25,200 nt of DNA from Candidatus Woesearchaeota archaeon (lineage in GTDB: Archaea; Nanobdellota; Nanobdellia; Woesearchaeales; ARS49). The stretch is taken from assembly GCA_038891615.1 (NCBI GenBank), contig JAWADY010000004.1, positions 1-25,200 on the forward strand, read 5' to 3'. Position 1 is the first letter of the stretch; each line of letters begins with the position of its first letter. The notes under the pieces are model-generated. The model was not told where the DNA came from, made no database searches, and was given only the letters and a program-made list of their open reading frames with translations. Shown piece after piece: positions 1-25,200 of the stretch. The position numbers and the translations under genes were made by a program.

Positions 1-127
1 AAATCATTCACACCATCAAAACTAAAAGCCTCACCAACCACACCAGCACCAAAACCAGCACCACCCTGCAAAACACCATGACTCACACCCACCAAATCAC
101 CAGCACTACCATCACCAGGCCACCAAC
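1..127. repeat. Exact direct repeat, copy A (start of second LamG domain; may extend beyond the window)
   Basis: 1-127 is identical to 814-940; offset 813 nt = 271 codons. Confidence 0.95.
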
Positions 128-1031
128 TCACAACACCACCAGGCACAGACTTACAACTACCAACAACACCACAAACACTCGGCTGACCAAAACAAGCAAA
201 ACCAGACTCAACAACACACCCAGAACCACAACCATCCCCACCTAAAACATTCCCATCATCACAAAACTCACCAACCTCCACCAAGCCATTACCACAAACA
301 GAACTCACAACCTTACACTTACCCAAACCCCCAGCAGCAAAAACAGCCTGAACCTCACCATCACCCAAAGCACGACCAAAAACCTCAACCTCATCAACCA
401 AACCCCTCAAAAAAGAACCCCCAACATTAGGATGCCCACCAATCAAAGCACGAGGATTCTGCCCATAATCAATACCAGTATTATGACAAGAATCAAAACC
501 AACCAAAGCCCCATCAACATAAACCTTCACAGAAGAACCATCATAAACACCAGCCCAATGATGCCACTTACCATCCTTCAAACCAGGACCACCCCTAGCC
601 CAACAATCACCCCAACCAAAACCATTCTCCTTTACCAAAAAAGCAGCAGTACTGCCATAATACAAATATAAAGCATAACCAGCAAGGCTGCCAGAAGCAT
701 CCTGAGCTGTAAAAACCATAGAAGTACTCAACTGAGAAGGATCCAGCTTAACCCAAGCATCAACACTCACAGCACCAGAAGGCCTCAAACCAGCACCAGT
801 CCCAACATCAACAAAATCATTCACACCATCAAAACTAAAAGCCTCACCAACCACACCAGCACCAAAACCAGCACCACCCTGCAAAACACCATGACTCACA
901 CCCACCAAATCACCAGCACTACCATCACCAGGCCACCAACCCAAAAGCCCAGAAGGAGGGGTTACACATTGGGCAAAAACAGCTAAAGAAAGAGTAAAAA
1001 TGAAAAAAACAAAGAGTACAGATAACCACAA
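1..1031 (-). CDS. Secreted LamG-like jellyroll (Laminin_G_3) repeat protein with Cys-rich (DUF4215/Myxococcus-type) repeat; partial, runs off the left edge
   Basis: Hand translation of an uninterrupted minus frame: signal-like LWLSVLFVFFIFTLSLAVFAQ, then CVTPPSGLLGWWPGDG...AFSFDGVNDFV...WHHWAGVYDG...VYVDG...GLVDEVEVFGRAL (LamG), then CGNGLVEVGEFCDDGNVLGGDGC (Cys-rich repeat), then a second WWPGDG LamG. Start uncertain (TTG 1031, or CTG 1079/1082). Not in the ORF track. Confidence 0.85.
   Translation of the reverse strand, partial: MWLSVLFVFFIFTLSLAVFAQCVTPPSGLLGWWPGDGSAGDLVGVSHGVLQGGAGFGAGVVGEAFSFDGVNDFVDVGTGAGLRPSGAVSVDAWVKLDPSQLSTSMVFTAQDASGSLAGYALYLYYGSTAAFLVKENGFGWGDCWARGGPGLKDGKWHHWAGVYDGSSVKVYVDGALVGFDSCHNTGIDYGQNPRALIGGHPNVGGSFLRGLVDEVEVFGRALGDGEVQAVFAAGGLGKCKVVSSVCGNGLVEVGEFCDDGNVLGGDGCGSGCVVESGFACFGQPSVCGVVGSCKSVPGGVVSWWPGDGSAGDLVGVSHGVLQGGAGFGAGVVGEAFSFDGVND
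814..940. repeat. Exact direct repeat, copy B (start of first LamG domain)
   Basis: Identical to 1-127 by base-by-base comparison. Confidence 0.95.
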
Positions 1032-1327
1032 TGGCTTATTTTTGAGACCACAATTACCACAACTTTTTTTGATTCTCAGCAGGAGTAAAAAAACATTTAA
1101 ATTTTTGTTTTCACTTTAAAGGGATAAGATTATTTTTGTGTAGAAAACTCAAGCACTAAACCATCTTCTTCTAATACAGCTTTCATTGGCAACCTTCAAA
1201 AAGCAGGCATCAGATTTCTATAACCGCAATTCAAAAATTTAATGCGCTTCATTAGCACCTTGACCATTCGATTTGAACACTCCACAAATTTTAAATACTA
1301 ATTGCATTTTTGAGGCTTTGTAAAAAG

Positions 1328-2176
1328 ATGCGAAAGCTCAAAAACAAACGCGGCACTGAAATGTTTGTTCTTGGAATTATTGCATTCACATTTTTAACAA
1401 TTTTATCTCTTGAGCATCTTAGAAATAATAATGAAAGTAATTTAATCACTTCTGCGAATCCTGCTCCGGTTACAAACAGTCAATCAAGATCGAGTTTGAC
1501 AGTACTTCCAGAAGAGGTCAGAGCTGCAATTGCGGCTGGTAAGGACTTTGTCGACATACCAGTCACTCCTGAACTCTCAAGAGCATTCTTCATTGACTAT
1601 TCAAAAGCTGTACACGTAACACCTCTGGGAACAGATTGCGGCCCAGACTCTAGTTCTTATAAACTGATGGGAAAAGGGCTGAAATGGTTTGTTTTCCCAA
1701 TAAGCTATAATATTGACCCTTCTGGCTCTGGGATTGATCCTTTTCTGACAAAGCAGGCAGTGGTTAATGGCATGAACAGCTGGGATGCTGAAGAGCATCC
1801 TACTGGAGGGCTTTTTGTTGAAAGTCTGCCTGCAAAAGTGAGCATTGGCTGGAATCCGATTGATGGACCAGGAGGAGCCCTTGCAGTAACATCGTTGACT
1901 TATATGACCAAAACAAAAGAGATAGTCAGCGCAACAGTAAGCTTTGACTCGCAAGAAAGCTGGACACAATATCCAGCTCTAAGCTGTACAAGCCAAGGAA
2001 GCGCTTTTGACATAGAAAATGTTGCAGCGCACGAAATTGGGCATGTGATTGGGCTTGACCATGTTCGGAAATTCACTGACCAAGCACTAACGATGTGGCC
2101 GTATGCTGGGCCAGGCGAGACATTCAAGAGAACTCTAGGAACTGGAGATAAAAAGGGAATCGATGCTCTTTACTAA
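1328..2176 (+). CDS. Matrixin-family (M10, metzincin) zinc metalloprotease, exported or membrane-anchored
   Basis: HEIGHVIGLDH (HExxHxxGxxH), Met-turn LTMWP, DGPGGALA motif, N-terminal basic plus hydrophobic segment. ATG 1328 chosen because it lies downstream of TTTTAAATA (~1289-1297). Confidence 0.9.
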   Translation: MRKLKNKRGTEMFVLGIIAFTFLTILSLEHLRNNNESNLITSANPAPVTNSQSRSSLTVLPEEVRAAIAAGKDFVDIPVTPELSRAFFIDYSKAVHVTPLGTDCGPDSSSYKLMGKGLKWFVFPISYNIDPSGSGIDPFLTKQAVVNGMNSWDAEEHPTGGLFVESLPAKVSIGWNPIDGPGGALAVTSLTYMTKTKEIVSATVSFDSQESWTQYPALSCTSQGSAFDIENVAAHEIGHVIGLDHVRKFTDQALTMWPYAGPGETFKRTLGTGDKKGIDALY

Positions 2177-2780: not shown

Positions 2781-3221
2781 ATGGAAGAAAAGCAAAAAGA
2801 AAATGAATCTGAGCTTAAGCAACAAATTACTCAAGGATACTTAGAACTGCAGCTTATTGATAGACAGCTCAGGCAACTACAAGCACAAATGCAAGCTCTT
2901 GAGGCTCAAGCGCTGGAGCTTGATACCGTTTCAAGCCAACTTGATGATTTTGGAAGATTAGAGATTGGAAGCGAGCTGTTCGTTCAAATCGCGCCAGGAA
3001 TTTTTGCAAAGGCAGAACTAAAAGAGAACAAGGAATTGCTTGTCAATGTTGGAGGTGGCGCTGCTGTTAAAGAATCGATTCCTGAAACAAAAGCCCTGCT
3101 TGCTGCCCAAGTGGCTGAGATAAGAAAGGTTCAGCAGGAACTCGGACAACAGATAGAAAAGCTGACAACAGAAGCTCGCAAATTGGAAGAAAGTATTCAA
3201 AAACTAATTTCAAAAAAATAA
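2781..3221 (+). CDS. pfdA: Prefoldin subunit alpha
   Basis: Coiled coil, beta-hairpins (ELFVQIAPGIFAKAEL..LLVNVGGG), coiled coil; conserved adjacency to ftsY. Confidence 0.9.
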   Translation: MEEKQKENESELKQQITQGYLELQLIDRQLRQLQAQMQALEAQALELDTVSSQLDDFGRLEIGSELFVQIAPGIFAKAELKENKELLVNVGGGAAVKESIPETKALLAAQVAEIRKVQQELGQQIEKLTTEARKLEESIQKLISKK

Positions 3222-3236
3222 CCGCTTCAAATAAAA

Positions 3237-4322
3237 ATGTTCACTTTTCTCAAAGAAAAACTGAAGGCAGCGATATCACTATTCACAAAAAAAGCTGAAG
3301 AAGTGCCTGCGGAGAAGACAGAAGAAGCAGAGCTGCCAAAAAAAAGAGCTGAACCAAAATCAGAAGTTTTTGAAGAAAAAGAATTCAATGAAAAAGAAAG
3401 GGTATTTGAAGGACCAAAAGAAGCACCTGCTGAGAAAAAAGGCTTTTTTGCACGACTCAAGGAAAAGGTTGTGGAAGTTGTCACAACGACAAGGCTCTCT
3501 GAAGGTAAATTCGATGAGCTTTTCTGGGAGCTTGAGCTTGCACTCCTGGAGAACAATGTGGCAGTCGAGGTTGTTGAAAAAATAAAAGCCGACCTCAAAG
3601 CAGCTATCGTTGACAAACCGATTCCTAGAGGGAAGCTAAAGGAAAGGATAGCTGAAGCACTCAGGCAGTCAATCCTTGAACTATTTTCTGTTGAGGCGCC
3701 TAACCTTTTGGAAAAAGCAAGGTCAAAAAAACCTTTTGTCATTTGTTTTTTTGGAATAAACGGTTCTGGAAAGACAACAACAATTGCAAAAGTTGCACAT
3801 CTATTGCAGAAGAACGGTCTTAGCACTGTCCTCGCAGCCTCGGATACTTTCAGAGCAGCCGCTATCGACCAGCTCCAGCAACACGCAGAAAAGATTGGCA
3901 GTAAGTTGATAAAACAGGATTATGGCGCTGATGCAGCGGCTGTTGCTTTTGATGCAATCAAGCATGCCAAGGCTGCCAAAAAAGATGTTGTGCTTATAGA
4001 TACAGCTGGAAGGCTTCACTCAAATGTCAACTTAATGGATGAGCTGAAGAAGGTTTGCAGGGTGGCAAAGCCTGACATGAAGATTTTTGTTGGCGAGGCG
4101 CTGACAGGCAATGACTGCGTTGAACAAGCAAGCACTTTTGACAAGGCAATAGGAATTGATGGAATAATTCTCACAAAGGCTGATGTTGATGAAAAGGGTG
4201 GAGCTGCAATATCGATATCAAAAGTTACTGGAAAGCCAATTCTTTTTTTAGGCACTGGCCAAGGCTACGATGACCTCAAGCCTTTTGAGCCGAAAATTGT
4301 CTTAGAAAGCCTTGGGATTTGA
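3237..4322 (+). CDS. ftsY: Signal recognition particle receptor FtsY
   Basis: GINGSGKTTTIAK, DTFRAAAIDQL, DTAGR, TKADVDEKGG, GTGQGYDDL; charged N-terminal region. Confidence 0.97.
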   Translation: MFTFLKEKLKAAISLFTKKAEEVPAEKTEEAELPKKRAEPKSEVFEEKEFNEKERVFEGPKEAPAEKKGFFARLKEKVVEVVTTTRLSEGKFDELFWELELALLENNVAVEVVEKIKADLKAAIVDKPIPRGKLKERIAEALRQSILELFSVEAPNLLEKARSKKPFVICFFGINGSGKTTTIAKVAHLLQKNGLSTVLAASDTFRAAAIDQLQQHAEKIGSKLIKQDYGADAAAVAFDAIKHAKAAKKDVVLIDTAGRLHSNVNLMDELKKVCRVAKPDMKIFVGEALTGNDCVEQASTFDKAIGIDGIILTKADVDEKGGAAISISKVTGKPILFLGTGQGYDDLKPFEPKIVLESLGI

Positions 4323-8441: not shown

Positions 8442-8996
8442 ATGCTAGAAAGAAGTTATATCATCCCGTTGCGTAAAGAATGGATAAAGGCTCCACGGTA
8501 TAAGAGGGCAAAAAAGGCTGTCTCAGCTGTGAGAGAGTTTCTAATGAAACACATGAAGGCTAACGATGTAAAAATCGGACCACAACTCAACCTCGCGATT
8601 TGGAAAAGAGGCATAAGAAATCCTCCTGCAAAAATAAAAGTTAGCGCTAGAAAGGATGAAAAGGGGGTTGTAAGGGTTGAGCTTTTTGGATTTGAGGTTC
8701 CAAAGCAAGAAGAAAAAAAGCCAGAATCAAAAGGCTTGCTTGGAAGGCTTGGTGAAAGGATAGCCTCGAAGACAGAAAAGGAAGAAGTTGAAGCAGCTAA
8801 AGTCTTGGAAGAGAAAAATGAGAAGCTAAAAGAAGAAAAGGGCAAAGCCTTGGACAAAGAAAAGGAGCAAAAAGAAACAAAAGGAAAAAAGAAAGAAGAA
8901 GTTGAAGCAGCTAAAGTCTTGGAAGAGAAAAATGAGAAGTTAAAAGAAGAAAAGGGCAAAGCCTCGGACAAAGAAAAGGAGCTGAAAGAAAAGTGA
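8442..8996 (+). CDS. rpl31e: 50S ribosomal protein L31e with charged, duplicated C-terminal extension
   Basis: ERSYIIPLR...KRAKKAV..VREFLMKHMK...LNLAIWKRGIRNPPAKIKV. Confidence 0.95.
   Translation: MLERSYIIPLRKEWIKAPRYKRAKKAVSAVREFLMKHMKANDVKIGPQLNLAIWKRGIRNPPAKIKVSARKDEKGVVRVELFGFEVPKQEEKKPESKGLLGRLGERIASKTEKEEVEAAKVLEEKNEKLKEEKGKALDKEKEQKETKGKKKEEVEAAKVLEEKNEKLKEEKGKASDKEKELKEK
8781..8982 (+). repeat. Intragenic direct repeat, 2 x 88 bp (8781-8868 and 8895-8982)
   Basis: Two mismatches; period 114 nt (38 aa); encodes EEVEAAKVLEEKNEKLKEEKGKA(L/S)DKEKE. Confidence 0.92.
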
Positions 8997-9198
8997 AAAA
9001 GGAGGAAGAAAATAGAGTAGTTTGAGAAAGTGAAAAGAAAAGCAACATGAAAGCAAGCAATATAAAAATAAGTTATAACAAGGTTAAAGAATAATAGTTG
9101 TAGCTAAAGATAAGAAGAACAAAGAACAAAAAATAAAAAACAAAAAGAGTGAAAAACTTCTGTTTAAAAATAAAAGTTTGGTCTTAAAAGCTGTGTCA

Positions 9199-22423: not shown

Positions 22424-24241
22424 ATGGAAAAACAAGAACTAGACCTCAGCTCACTTTTAAACAATTCTTTCGACGAAGCCAAACTTAATGAAATTGCAGC
22501 TTCTGGAAAATATTCAAACATAAAAGTTGTTGGAGAGAGTAACAAAATATATGTAAAGGTTCCTGACGCAAAGGATTTCTCTACAGCAATTGAAGATAAT
22601 TGGGTTCAATTGAAAGAATATCTTTACAGGGGTAGGGCTGCACAAAAAAGCAATGCGGTCGAAACAAATACGGAAAAAAACTATCGCACACTTGAGTCGA
22701 TTACAAAAGGTGAAGATGAAAAGCTAAGAAGTGAACAAAAAAGGTACATCTATTTAGGAAAAGAAAAAGCGCAAGTTTTGGAGGTTGAAGAAAAAGACGA
22801 GAGTTACATTATAAAAACAGTTTGCGGTGGAGATGAGAAAAGATACGAAGAACTCTGCAACAAGTGTGCAGAGGTTTTGTCAATTTTAGGAAAGATATCA
22901 ATAATAGAATCTGCTCTCCAAAGTGCCAATCTTAACAGGGCACTGTATCAATCGCATTTAAAAAGCGAAGCATACCTAAAGGGCGATGAGGATGCAAAAA
23001 AACAAATAGCCCAGTTAGATGCTGTTTATAAAACCTATAAGCCAATGCTTGAACAGCTCACACACTTCAAAGAGTTAGCCTTTGATGTTGAAAAATTAGA
23101 AAAGGGGCAAGCAAGGCAAGGTTCTACAATTCTCAACGAAGAGCAGATTCTGAAACTTTTTAAAAATCAAGAGCTGCTTTATAAGACCTTTGGCGCGCTT
23201 CCTGCAGAATATGCTCAAGAGTCTCTTGACGGTTTTCTCACGCGTGCTGAGGCAGGTTTTGGCCAGGAGGTAAAGGCTCTTGTTTCTGAACTGAAAAGAA
23301 CTTACAATTTGGCTGGAGACCAAGTTGCTCTTCAAATGGAATCGGTGATGGATTCTGTTAAAGCAGATAAAAGCACTGATATGAAAAGCTTGATCAAAAA
23401 ATTTAATGAGCTCGAGGAAGAAGTAAGACGCTATCACACTAGAAGTTATGCGCTCAACTCTTTTGTCATAGCAAAAGATGCCGATACCAAACCAAAGCGC
23501 CTTGGCCGTGTCGCTCAACTGACTGGTAGAGACATTTCAGACCTTGAACATGAAATTGAGAAGCCAACAACGGCACTCGCACAGTTAGGCAAGACAGGCG
23601 GAGGGGCTGCGGCTGCAAAATGGATTGTTGAACAGGCAACTCGTTCAAAATTTGAGCTAGCTCCAAAATCTAGAGGCGAAGGGCTTGCTTATCAAATAAG
23701 TGAGTACACAGACCCAATCACTAATGAGAAAAAAACCATGGTAACACTGGCTTCATATGTCTCGCAGGGCAGGAATGCCTTGAATGAAGTGCTGACACAA
23801 CTACTGATTAACACAATCAAAGAAGAAATGAAAGAAGTGGCTCAAAAAAACGCTGTTGAATTTGATCCAGAAAGCCTACAAGGTAAAATCGAGGTATACG
23901 AAAATTCCCTTCTTATGCTGCCAAAAATTATGGTCAGTTATCGTAAACTAAACACCTCACAGCAAGCCGAAAAATGCGTTGAGATGTTTAGTAATGCAAA
24001 AGAGGAAGTAAAGACCTTGATAAAAGAGAGCCTTGTTGCGAATAAGCTCAGTGAAAAAGAATTCAGCAGTGATGACGAACTTAAACTTCAGGCGGAACAG
24101 CTTCAGAAGATAGCAGAGATGAAGAAAAAACTCTCCTATATTGCTGATCTGACTCTAGCAAAAGAGCTTGGACATGCTGGAAAACCAGTTGACATAACGC
24201 CAGAAGAAATAGAAGAACAAAAACGCAAAGAAGCAGAATAA
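22424..24241 (+). CDS. Large hypothetical helical/coiled-coil protein (605 aa)
   Basis: Long ORF with SD GGAGGT and TATA TTTATATA (22360-22367); no motif recognised. Confidence 0.8.
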   Translation: MEKQELDLSSLLNNSFDEAKLNEIAASGKYSNIKVVGESNKIYVKVPDAKDFSTAIEDNWVQLKEYLYRGRAAQKSNAVETNTEKNYRTLESITKGEDEKLRSEQKRYIYLGKEKAQVLEVEEKDESYIIKTVCGGDEKRYEELCNKCAEVLSILGKISIIESALQSANLNRALYQSHLKSEAYLKGDEDAKKQIAQLDAVYKTYKPMLEQLTHFKELAFDVEKLEKGQARQGSTILNEEQILKLFKNQELLYKTFGALPAEYAQESLDGFLTRAEAGFGQEVKALVSELKRTYNLAGDQVALQMESVMDSVKADKSTDMKSLIKKFNELEEEVRRYHTRSYALNSFVIAKDADTKPKRLGRVAQLTGRDISDLEHEIEKPTTALAQLGKTGGGAAAAKWIVEQATRSKFELAPKSRGEGLAYQISEYTDPITNEKKTMVTLASYVSQGRNALNEVLTQLLINTIKEEMKEVAQKNAVEFDPESLQGKIEVYENSLLMLPKIMVSYRKLNTSQQAEKCVEMFSNAKEEVKTLIKESLVANKLSEKEFSSDDELKLQAEQLQKIAEMKKKLSYIADLTLAKELGHAGKPVDITPEEIEEQKRKEAE

Positions 24242-24248
24242 ACACAAA

Positions 24249-25200
24249 ATGTCCCTAAAAAACTGGCTAGAAAAAATCTTCGGAAAACAAAACTTAACCG
24301 CAACCACACAATTCCTTCTAAACGCCAAGCACAACTCCAAACTCAAAAACGAAGGACTACTAAGCACCGAACAATTCATTGACAAAATTTCCCAAAACCA
24401 GTACAACCTCTTTTCCAACCTAACCAAAGAATTTGTTGAAAAAGAAATTTCAAAAAACAAAAAAAAGCAACTAAACTGGGAAAACATCGAAAAAGAACTA
24501 AAGACACACCTCATCGAACACGGAATAGAAATCCACCACAAAAAAGTTCTTCGAGAATTCCCCGGCACCCTACGCGACGTACTCGCAGCATACGTAAGCG
24601 ACGGAAAAAGCTTCGACTCAAAACAACTCACACCAGAACAAGCTCAAACCCTTGACAAACTAATGGAAAAAAAATTCAAACCCATAGAAGGCCACCCATG
24701 GCCACTTCACGACAAAGCAGTATACCGCAACTACAACCTCTACTACAAAGAAACAGACCTCTCACTTCTAGCCAACGAATGCCCAGAATACGACATAACA
24801 AACCTTGAAAACTTTTTAAAAATCTACACAGATTTAGGCAAAAGAATTTTTAACGAAAAATACCAAGAACCAGCACAAAAAGACACCGCATTCAAAAGAA
24901 AACTCAAACTAGCCCTAGCAACCGGACTCAGCATAGCCGCAGCCATCACAGGCAGTTTCTTTGTTTACGGACGCCTTAAAAACGAGCTAGAAAAGTTTAT
25001 GAAAGAAAAAGAAGTGATAATTCAAGAAAACAGGAAAGAAATATTAAAGCTCCAGATGGAAAAGGAATGGTACGCTATGGAGCTGGAGAAGCTCAAACGA
25101 TCAGAAACAAAGAAAATAAGAGAATATGATGTCAAGCTGGAGGAGCTTAAGCTGGCTGAAAAGAAACTTCGCAAAGAGCATGCCGAACGAATGAAAGCTC
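24249..25200 (+). CDS. Hypothetical single-pass membrane protein with coiled coil; partial, runs off the right edge
   Basis: Hand translation open from ATG 24249 to the window end: MSLKNWLEKIFG... about 220 aa soluble region, TM LALATGLSIAAAITGSFFVYG, then E/K-rich coiled coil. Not in the ORF track. Confidence 0.8.
   Translation, partial: MSLKNWLEKIFGKQNLTATTQFLLNAKHNSKLKNEGLLSTEQFIDKISQNQYNLFSNLTKEFVEKEISKNKKKQLNWENIEKELKTHLIEHGIEIHHKKVLREFPGTLRDVLAAYVSDGKSFDSKQLTPEQAQTLDKLMEKKFKPIEGHPWPLHDKAVYRNYNLYYKETDLSLLANECPEYDITNLENFLKIYTDLGKRIFNEKYQEPAQKDTAFKRKLKLALATGLSIAAAITGSFFVYGRLKNELEKFMKEKEVIIQENRKEILKLQMEKEWYAMELEKLKRSETKKIREYDVKLEELKLAEKKLRKEHAERMKA

Follow-up and report, generated by a model that had tools for sequence, protein, structure and literature searches.

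The window analysed here is the whole of contig C4 (JAWADY010000004.1), a 25.2-kb stretch from a Candidatus Woesearchaeota archaeon, the genome of which comprises 661 kb in five contigs (C1 to C5) and is 97.9% complete. At its left end, on the minus strand, the window carries the 5′ part of a gene for a secreted surface protein built from tandem modules, each possessing a LamG domain and a cysteine-rich repeat (Table 1). The DNA of these modules is intensely skewed, its coding strand being rich in G and T, and the patch is probably an element of the kind described as genetic repeats of intense nucleotide skew (GRINS). The sequencing runs containing the stretch carry a hot-spring metagenome label.

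Table 1. Features of the skewed surface-protein gene in the window (C4) and regions elsewhere in the genome found by the GRINS-style scan
Feature	Position	Strand	Basis or remark
Secreted modular surface-protein gene, 5′ part, 343 codons	3..1031	-	ORF list, Pfam, codon statistics; runs off contig start
Unique 5′ part: start codon and hydrophobic signal peptide	957..1031	-	Predicted helix, residues 2-17
Module 1 of tandem repeat, LamG + Cys-rich repeat	144..956	-	Direct repeat, period 813 nt (271 aa)
Start of module 2, cut by contig end	1..143	-	96% identical to 814-956, spacing 813
LamG (Laminin_G_3, PF13385) domain, residues 69-228	348..827	-	Pfam; AlphaFold2 beta-sandwich
Cys-rich repeat resembling DUF4215, residues 239-272	216..317	-	Sub-cut-off Pfam score; same repeat in relatives
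Variable part of module, copies differ	502..773	-	Two variants in public contigs; weakest skew
GRINS-style region, keto/amino-type	C1:244312-245396
GRINS-style region, keto/amino-type	C1:245623-246152
GRINS-style region, keto/amino-type	C2:164132-165322
GRINS-style region, keto/amino-type	C3:132976-134947
GRINS-style region, borderline purine-type	C1:262928-264192

The match to Laminin_G_3 scores 87 bits against a cut-off of 27.6 (E-value 1.9e-24) and covers the profile from position 2 to 151 (of 151). The AlphaFold2 model is all-beta, with pLDDT values of 82-98 for 10-residue blocks over residues 51-240. By profile score and modelled beta-sandwich, residues 69-228 are thus predicted to form a Laminin_G_3 domain of the concanavalin A-like lectin type. 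The cysteine-rich repeat missed the cut-off of 27 for DUF4215 (PF13948) with 24.3 bits (E-value 4e-5) and is for this reason referred to as DUF4215-like only. Three long open reading frames (ORFs) on the plus strand of the patch were considered as antisense genes and rejected, the Pfam search with them being empty; they stay open because the A+C-rich DNA is free of stop codons.

The initial annotation had singled out positions 1-960 for extreme strand skew, and its base counts are exact, with 51 of the first 60 bases being A or C against 27 of 60 at 3481-3540. The sliding-window scan that it proposed places the patch at the extreme of the genome: all of the top 11 300-nt windows for plus-strand A+C lie within C4:1-950, with values up to 0.843 against a genome mean of 0.502 (standard deviation 0.045). 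Over positions 1-900, three successive 300-nt windows have plus-strand GC skews of -0.75, -0.60 and -0.51 and AT skews of +0.63, +0.49 and +0.52. The coding strand of the ORF at 3..1031 is 78% G+T, the G/T fraction being 0.78, 0.62 and 0.95 at codon positions 1, 2 and 3 respectively, and third positions are mostly T (0.71) followed by G (0.24). Such a fraction of G/T-ending codons (GT3) makes this ORF the top outlier among the 616 genome ORFs of at least 150 aa, for which GT3 is 0.511 ± 0.049. Two-fold codons are near fixation, with T:C at 89:2 in pyrimidine-ending codons and G:A at 45:5 in purine-ending codons. The four-fold sites (T 152, G 26, C 6, A 4) are 84% pyrimidine-ending, against 52% both in the genome and in 28 homologous segments (maximum 0.67), giving binomial p values of 4e-20 and 3e-7.

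The skew follows the repeat and not the gene or the transcript. Codons end in G or T in 310 of 318 cases in the repeated part of the gene and in 16 of 25 in the unique 5′ part (Fisher p 2e-7). Within the repeat, third positions are G or T at 226 of 228 codons outside the variable core, as compared to 84 of 90 inside it (502-773), and six of the eight remaining A/C-ending codons lie at 633-708. The skew is therefore most complete where the module copies are identical, because the remaining A/C-ending codons cluster where the copies differ. This is in keeping with the relaxation noted in the initial annotation for the signal peptide and for approximately 640-770, the A+C content being 0.67-0.70 at 661-780 and 0.68 at 961-1020 against 0.80-0.87 elsewhere in the patch.

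Information on further module copies comes from public contigs of four runs from two studies, the depths of which are a rough guide and not copy numbers. The flank of the gene has single depth, while pieces 98-296, 267-531 and 744-940 are found at 1.6-3.3 times the flank depth, and the copies are identical in such stretches, because these collapse into single contigs of higher depth. At position 267 the public contigs branch into a 1599-nt contig of single depth; 25 of the 30 visible letters of this continuation are A or C, and a search with these 30 letters matched none of the five contigs of the genome. Most simply, the contig depths would point to a gene with approximately three modules and, after them, a C-terminal part that is unique.

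Two variants of the core 502-773 are present in the public contigs, differing from the window at 14 and 23 sites plus indels. These differences are largely within the two-letter A/C alphabet, 16 of the 39 being A-C exchanges. Positions 532-611 and 740-743 of the window match one variant and 633-727 match the other, while positions 365 and 495 differ from every contig compared in all four runs. The window version of the core may thus be an assembler mosaic of module copies.

A GRINS-style scan of the whole genome (self-BLAST at ≥80% identity over a length >500 bp, with mean absolute skews >0.15) returned five qualifying regions, four of them of the keto/amino type and located in three giant Asn/Thr-rich surface-protein genes that have a common repeated module (C1:244312-246152, C2:164132-165322, C3:132976-134947). 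The skew of these genes is confined to their duplicated parts and is opposite in sign to that of the LamG gene, the coding strand being A/C-rich. In the duplicated parts GT3 is 0.21-0.27 and Thr, Asn, Pro, Gln and His together make up 41-42% of residues, compared to 0.36-0.50 and 24-31% in the remainder of these genes. Of all the cases found, the LamG array alone has a coding strand rich in G+T; since the other repeated genes have the opposite sign, transcription does not determine the sign. Across the genome, duplicated 150-nt windows (n=288) have a mean absolute GC skew of 0.26 and a mean absolute TA skew of 0.30, which are positively correlated (r = +0.62), while the values for non-duplicated windows (n=21578) are 0.151 and 0.150 with r = -0.40.

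There is also a mirror patch at the other end of the window (24121-24960), in a plus-strand gene (24213-25199) which runs off the contig end and encodes a 329-aa Lys/Glu/Asn-rich protein with no Pfam match. Its GT3 is 0.22, and over codons 101-200 the ratios of T:C and G:A are 0:29 and 0:23. Positions 24181-24389 are repeated at the start of contig C5, both ends of which are skewed in the same way relative to coding as this mirror patch. Several of the assembly contigs end in the repeats of the giant genes, and all five end in or near skewed regions.

Replication-linked skew was considered and rejected, since third-position strand skew outside the patches stays within 0.47-0.54 across 10-kb bins and has no consistent sign beside them. 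Vertebrate mitochondrial DNA also has one strand enriched in G+T, an asymmetry attributed to the deamination of C and A in exposed single-stranded DNA. However, mitochondrial and replication-associated skews span whole replicons, whereas the LamG patch stops within a gene, at the edge of the repeat.

Homologs were compared at two levels, namely 139 homologous segments from 117 proteins for amino acid composition, and metagenome loci for DNA composition, these being the best 80 of 259 relatives (≤41% identity), of which the 73 with an open frame were used. None of these homologs is skewed or has an excess of Gly and Val. In the 73 loci, overall G+T is 0.509 ± 0.022 (maximum 0.561) against 0.78 in the LamG gene, GT3 is 0.483 ± 0.057 (maximum 0.616) against 0.95, Gly is 12.1% (maximum 16.7%) against 21.0%, and Val is 8.0% (maximum 13.6%) against 14.0%. 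Eleven loci from related genomes have a GT3 of 0.36-0.76. The skew and the Gly/Val excess are thus not inherent to LamG domains.

Against the 139 segments, the protein is enriched in Gly (21.4 versus 12.4%) and Val (12.9 versus 8.0%) and depleted in Ile (0.7 versus 5.8%), Thr (1.8 versus 6.5%) and Asn (2.6 versus 6.0%). The amino acid shift described in the initial annotation is accordingly present for these residues, but the loss of Lys that it also supposed is absent (3.0 versus 2.4%). Gly, Val, Cys and Trp together account for 42.5% of the repeated part, compared to 11-16% in other surface proteins.

The direction of the replacements could be polarised against the family consensus only, for want of close relatives. 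The best protein match outside the species is 44% identical among 5.8 billion proteins searched, and identity is ≤37% in 40 related genomes, a tally that includes the unpublished genome G009, although nothing specific depends on that genome. Across 116 conserved columns (consensus ≥40%), the consensus residue is kept in 75 and changed in 41. The changes at codon positions 1 and 2 raise G/T in 28 of these 41 columns, lower it in eight and are neutral in five, giving a G/T-raising fraction of 0.78, as against 0.46 ± 0.09 (maximum 0.67) when the 139 homologs are treated alike. Typical replacements are Ile to Val (six), Asn to Gly (three), Ser to Gly (three), Thr to Val (two) and Asn to Ser (two). 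All four invariant columns of a 44-sequence alignment, together with 22 nearly invariant ones, contain the residue of the query, so that the residues defining LamG are kept. The protein has been recoded directionally, yet the LamG fold looks intact. The proposal that a localized, strand-specific drive has rewritten a surface-protein gene thus holds at both silent and amino acid-changing positions.

Two relatives show features which touch on this pattern. One (G022:C19:44000-63900) encodes a protein of >5500 aa composed of tandem LamG modules, approximately 69-75% identical in DNA, and has a milder keto skew on the coding strand (GT3 0.68); this array may represent the same phenomenon in a weaker or decaying form. 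The other is a closed 1.3-Mb genome (G040:C1:540000-552000) in which GT3 is 0.29-0.43 in plus-strand genes and 0.56-0.74 in minus-strand genes over approximately 10 kb, a strand skew that is independent of gene orientation and far stronger than in any non-repeat part of the genome carrying the LamG gene.

GRINS were described in 2021, mainly in the polyketide synthases (PKS) of Streptomyces, as duplicated regions in which GC and TA skews are intense, correlated with each other and most pronounced at third codon positions (Nivina et al., 2021; PMC8256042). They are defined there as duplications of >500 bp at >80% DNA identity with mean absolute GC and TA skews >0.15. Positively skewed parts are enriched in Gly, Val, Cys and Trp and negatively skewed parts in Pro, Thr, His and Gln, and the copies are near-identical within a genome and distant from homologs elsewhere (PMC8256042). 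The survey in that paper covers bacteria, with amoebae and choanoflagellates mentioned, and GRINS are reported to be most common in Streptomyces.

The patch shares several features with these elements. Both of its skews are of the same sense, as is usual for GRINS, G going with T on the coding strand, and far exceed 0.15 over 1-900; they are confined to duplicated DNA inside a protein-coding gene, they are strongest at third positions, and the enrichment in Gly, Val, Cys and Trp is that given for positively skewed parts. As in the published cases, the amino acid shift depends on the sign of the skew, the protein appears functional, and the copies are near-identical within the genome and remote from homologs elsewhere. 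The link to the repeat and the mirror skew in the other repeated genes, which together make up the published GRINS pattern, had been overlooked in the initial annotation. We therefore regard the patch as probably a GRINS-type element in a secreted LamG/Cys-rich surface-protein gene, best filed as an archaeal and near-saturated addition to this kind.

There are also differences. The host here is an archaeon with a 661-kb genome, whereas the word 'archaea' is absent from the main text of PMC8256042, and the skew is carried by an array of LamG surface-protein modules instead of by a polyketide synthase or transposase. Outside the supplements of PMC8256042, the gene-family tables of which might name further families, the papers listed by the literature searches describe GRINS neither from archaea nor from surface proteins, and those pairing GRINS with nucleotide skews concern only PKS or nonribosomal peptide synthetases (NRPS). 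The intensity is near saturation, and a single sign prevails throughout the visible module, while many published GRINS switch sign within 1 kb (PMC8256042).

This uniformity is one of several points that weigh against the classification. A duplication of >500 bp at >80% identity is not found on the assembly, as the contig ends 143 nt into the second module (96% identity over that length), and the longer duplication is seen indirectly only, by way of public contig depths, which are not copy numbers and on which the figure of approximately three copies rests. Gene conversion is likewise inferred from identical stretches on either side of a divergent core, and the window version of that core, which matches neither public variant in full, may be a chimera created by the assembler. 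Evidence of ongoing diversification was not obtained from the contigs compared. Moreover, the GRINS label names the kind of element and does not account for the asymmetry, in bacteria or here.

Some indication of the cause comes from the spectrum of changes. Inferred amino-to-keto changes at codon positions 1 and 2 number 34, namely 22 A>G, four C>T, five C>G and three A>T, while the seven keto-to-amino changes include no transversion. The initial annotation had attributed the skew to deamination of single-stranded DNA, and A>G is indeed the commonest change (22 of 54 minimal changes at these positions), but the transversions towards keto bases, with none in reverse, and the pyrimidine excess at four-fold sites do not agree with it. 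Transitions cannot convert purine-ending to pyrimidine-ending codons, and yet 84% of four-fold sites end in a pyrimidine. Deamination (A>G, C>T) is consequently ruled out by the silent sites as the sole cause. The genome also encodes EndoV (E-value 2.7e-58) and uracil-DNA glycosylase (UDG; E-value 4.6e-35), so deaminated bases do not simply escape repair. A better fit is a general drive towards keto bases that affects one strand of recombining sequences and is repeated through many rounds.

Such a drive could operate as follows. Sequence would pass again and again between module copies through non-reciprocal recombination (gene conversion), and in each round strand-asymmetric synthesis or mismatch processing would let changes from amino (A, C) to keto (G, T) bases accumulate. 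These would spread through all of the module copies, with selection purging only those that break the fold. In this particular form the proposal is tentative and is given somewhat less than an even chance of being correct. Three candidate sources of the asymmetry may be named: high-temperature deamination of exposed single strands, as in the initial annotation; polymerase errors on tautomeric bases, as put forward by the GRINS authors (PMC8256042); and, as our own suggestion, the action of the keto-specific mismatch nuclease NucS/EndoMS on recombination heteroduplexes.

NucS/EndoMS cleaves G/T, G/G and T/T mismatches and hardly A/C, A/A or C/C (Ishino et al., 2016, PMC4838380; Takemoto et al., 2018, PMC6159521), and thus treats keto and amino mismatches differently. 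Actinobacteria lack MutS homologs and depend on it (PMC6159521, PMC5290159). The present genome is similar in that it encodes NucS (E-value 2e-34), while no MutS was found in the 97.9%-complete assembly. No link between NucS and local skew appears in the text of those sources, and the enzyme serves here as a pointer to the mechanism, not as a ground for classification.

The keto/amino skew of GRINS might be the footprint of biased gene conversion imposed by NucS/EndoMS, a speculative idea that we consider unlikely to be correct as it stands. Heteroduplexes of diverged copies containing G/T, G/G or T/T mismatches would be cut and the event aborted, while A/C, A/A and C/C mismatches would be tolerated. 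Only those exchanges that swap A or C of the invading strand for G or T of the donor would then succeed, and repeated rounds would push one strand of the repeat family to a G/T alphabet. If true, it would account for the keto transversions, for four-fold sites that depart from the 52:48 split predicted by transitions, for a sign that is independent of transcription, and for the abundance of GRINS in Streptomyces, an actinobacterial genus.

Four other explanations of the patch were weighed against its reading as a GRINS-type element. Selection on the nucleic acid itself, favouring a G/T (or A/C) alphabet in repeats, is improbable, though it fares best among them. Possible benefits would be an A+C strand unable to fold on itself, or wobble-read codons that slow the translation of a secreted multi-domain protein. 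The A+C-rich strand is indeed almost structure-free as RNA, with minimum free energies of -8.4 to -26.9 kcal/mol per 300 nt against -77.0 ± 9.5 kcal/mol in 48 GC-matched genome windows; the differences between the window and the public variants keep largely to the alphabet, and the four-fold preference for T lies far beyond the reach of transitions. However, no benefit is known, and the bias overrides conserved amino acids, as in the 28 of 41 replacements towards G/T. Other repeats of the genome use the opposite coding-strand alphabet, so that the cases are not united by mRNA composition or by codon choice. Translational selection was rejected, as T-ending codons are wobble-read and the 24 tRNA genes found by ARAGORN, an incomplete set, favour none of them and include no special tRNA for T-ending codons. 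Among the ARAGORN predictions are a tRNA labelled Pyl that has the anticodon CTA (C3:51975-52069) and two odd tRNA-like matches with a four-base anticodon loop, which may be misread intron-containing archaeal tRNAs.

Transcription-associated deamination, in which the single-stranded non-template strand of a highly expressed gene gains C>T and A>G changes at high temperature, is marginally less probable again. The G+T-rich strand is the coding strand, A>G is the commonest inferred replacement, the two-fold codons are saturated, and the source runs are labelled as hot-spring metagenomes; no RNA run is among the public runs containing the stretch. Against this, the signal-peptide codons belong to the same transcript and end in G/T in only 16 of 25 cases versus 310 of 318 in the repeated part, and five other outlier genes or gene parts (GT3 0.21-0.30) are opposite in sign to their own transcription. 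The excess of pyrimidines at four-fold sites (84% versus 52% expected) goes beyond transitions, and the repair enzymes EndoV and UDG are both encoded.

Horizontal transfer from a uniformly skewed donor (virus, plasmid or another organism), or an artefact of assembly or sequencing, is very improbable. Points that could be taken in its favour are the location of the patch at a contig end and its G+C content of 0.45-0.48 against 0.41 for the genome. However, the skew gives way within the gene, at the edge of the repeat, and a confidently predicted LamG fold is encoded. Neither a skewed donor nor a close relative was found, since the only close protein matches belong to the same species and the next best among the 5.8 billion proteins is the one at 44%; GT3 does not exceed 0.62 in the 73 metagenome loci or 0.76 in the 11 loci of relatives, against 0.95 here. 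A chimeric join is also contradicted by the presence of the stretch in six public runs from two studies, and of the protein in four NCBI assemblies, where its contigs are invariably short (8-25 kb). Rewriting by a diversity-generating retroelement (DGR) or another process with an RNA intermediate is the least probable of all and hardly credible, since, although the target is a surface protein with a variable core present in two variants in public contigs (502-773), a search for reverse transcriptase (RVT_1) that gave matches in control genomes found nothing in this genome (97.9% complete), the bias is directional whereas DGRs randomise adenines, and self-BLAST found no template repeat and no second copy outside the tandem repeat.

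Several neighbours of the LamG gene were also noted from their translations. The divergent gene at 1310-2176 (plus strand) appears to encode a 288-aa secreted protein with the zinc-metalloprotease motif HExxHxxGxxH. It is followed by a putative coiled-coil protein, possibly prefoldin-like (2781-3221), and by a gene labelled ftsY in the initial annotation (3237-4322). Further along there is a purine-rich patch (8701-9010; plus-strand GC skew +0.45, AT skew +0.66), which overlaps a duplicated stretch of 243 nt (8768-9010) and is of the purine type, not the keto type.

From a practical viewpoint, skewed repeats of this sort break assemblies and may be misread as foreign DNA or artefacts. As for the cause, the silent-site data argue against deamination alone, and the candidate machinery is narrowed to what a cell of this kind possesses: RVT_1 and MutS were not found in the genome, while NucS, EndoV and UDG are present. 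The gene also gives an indication of how far such a process can go, with 226 of 228 silent positions outside the variable core being G or T, approximately one-third of conserved columns replaced, and a fold that still looks intact. Read as a GRINS-type element, the patch extends the phenomenon to an archaeon whose gene set is among the smallest (661 kb) and to surface or adhesion proteins. Should the NucS interpretation prove true, it would mean that a minimal symbiotic archaeon rewrites by this route the proteins with which it contacts its host.

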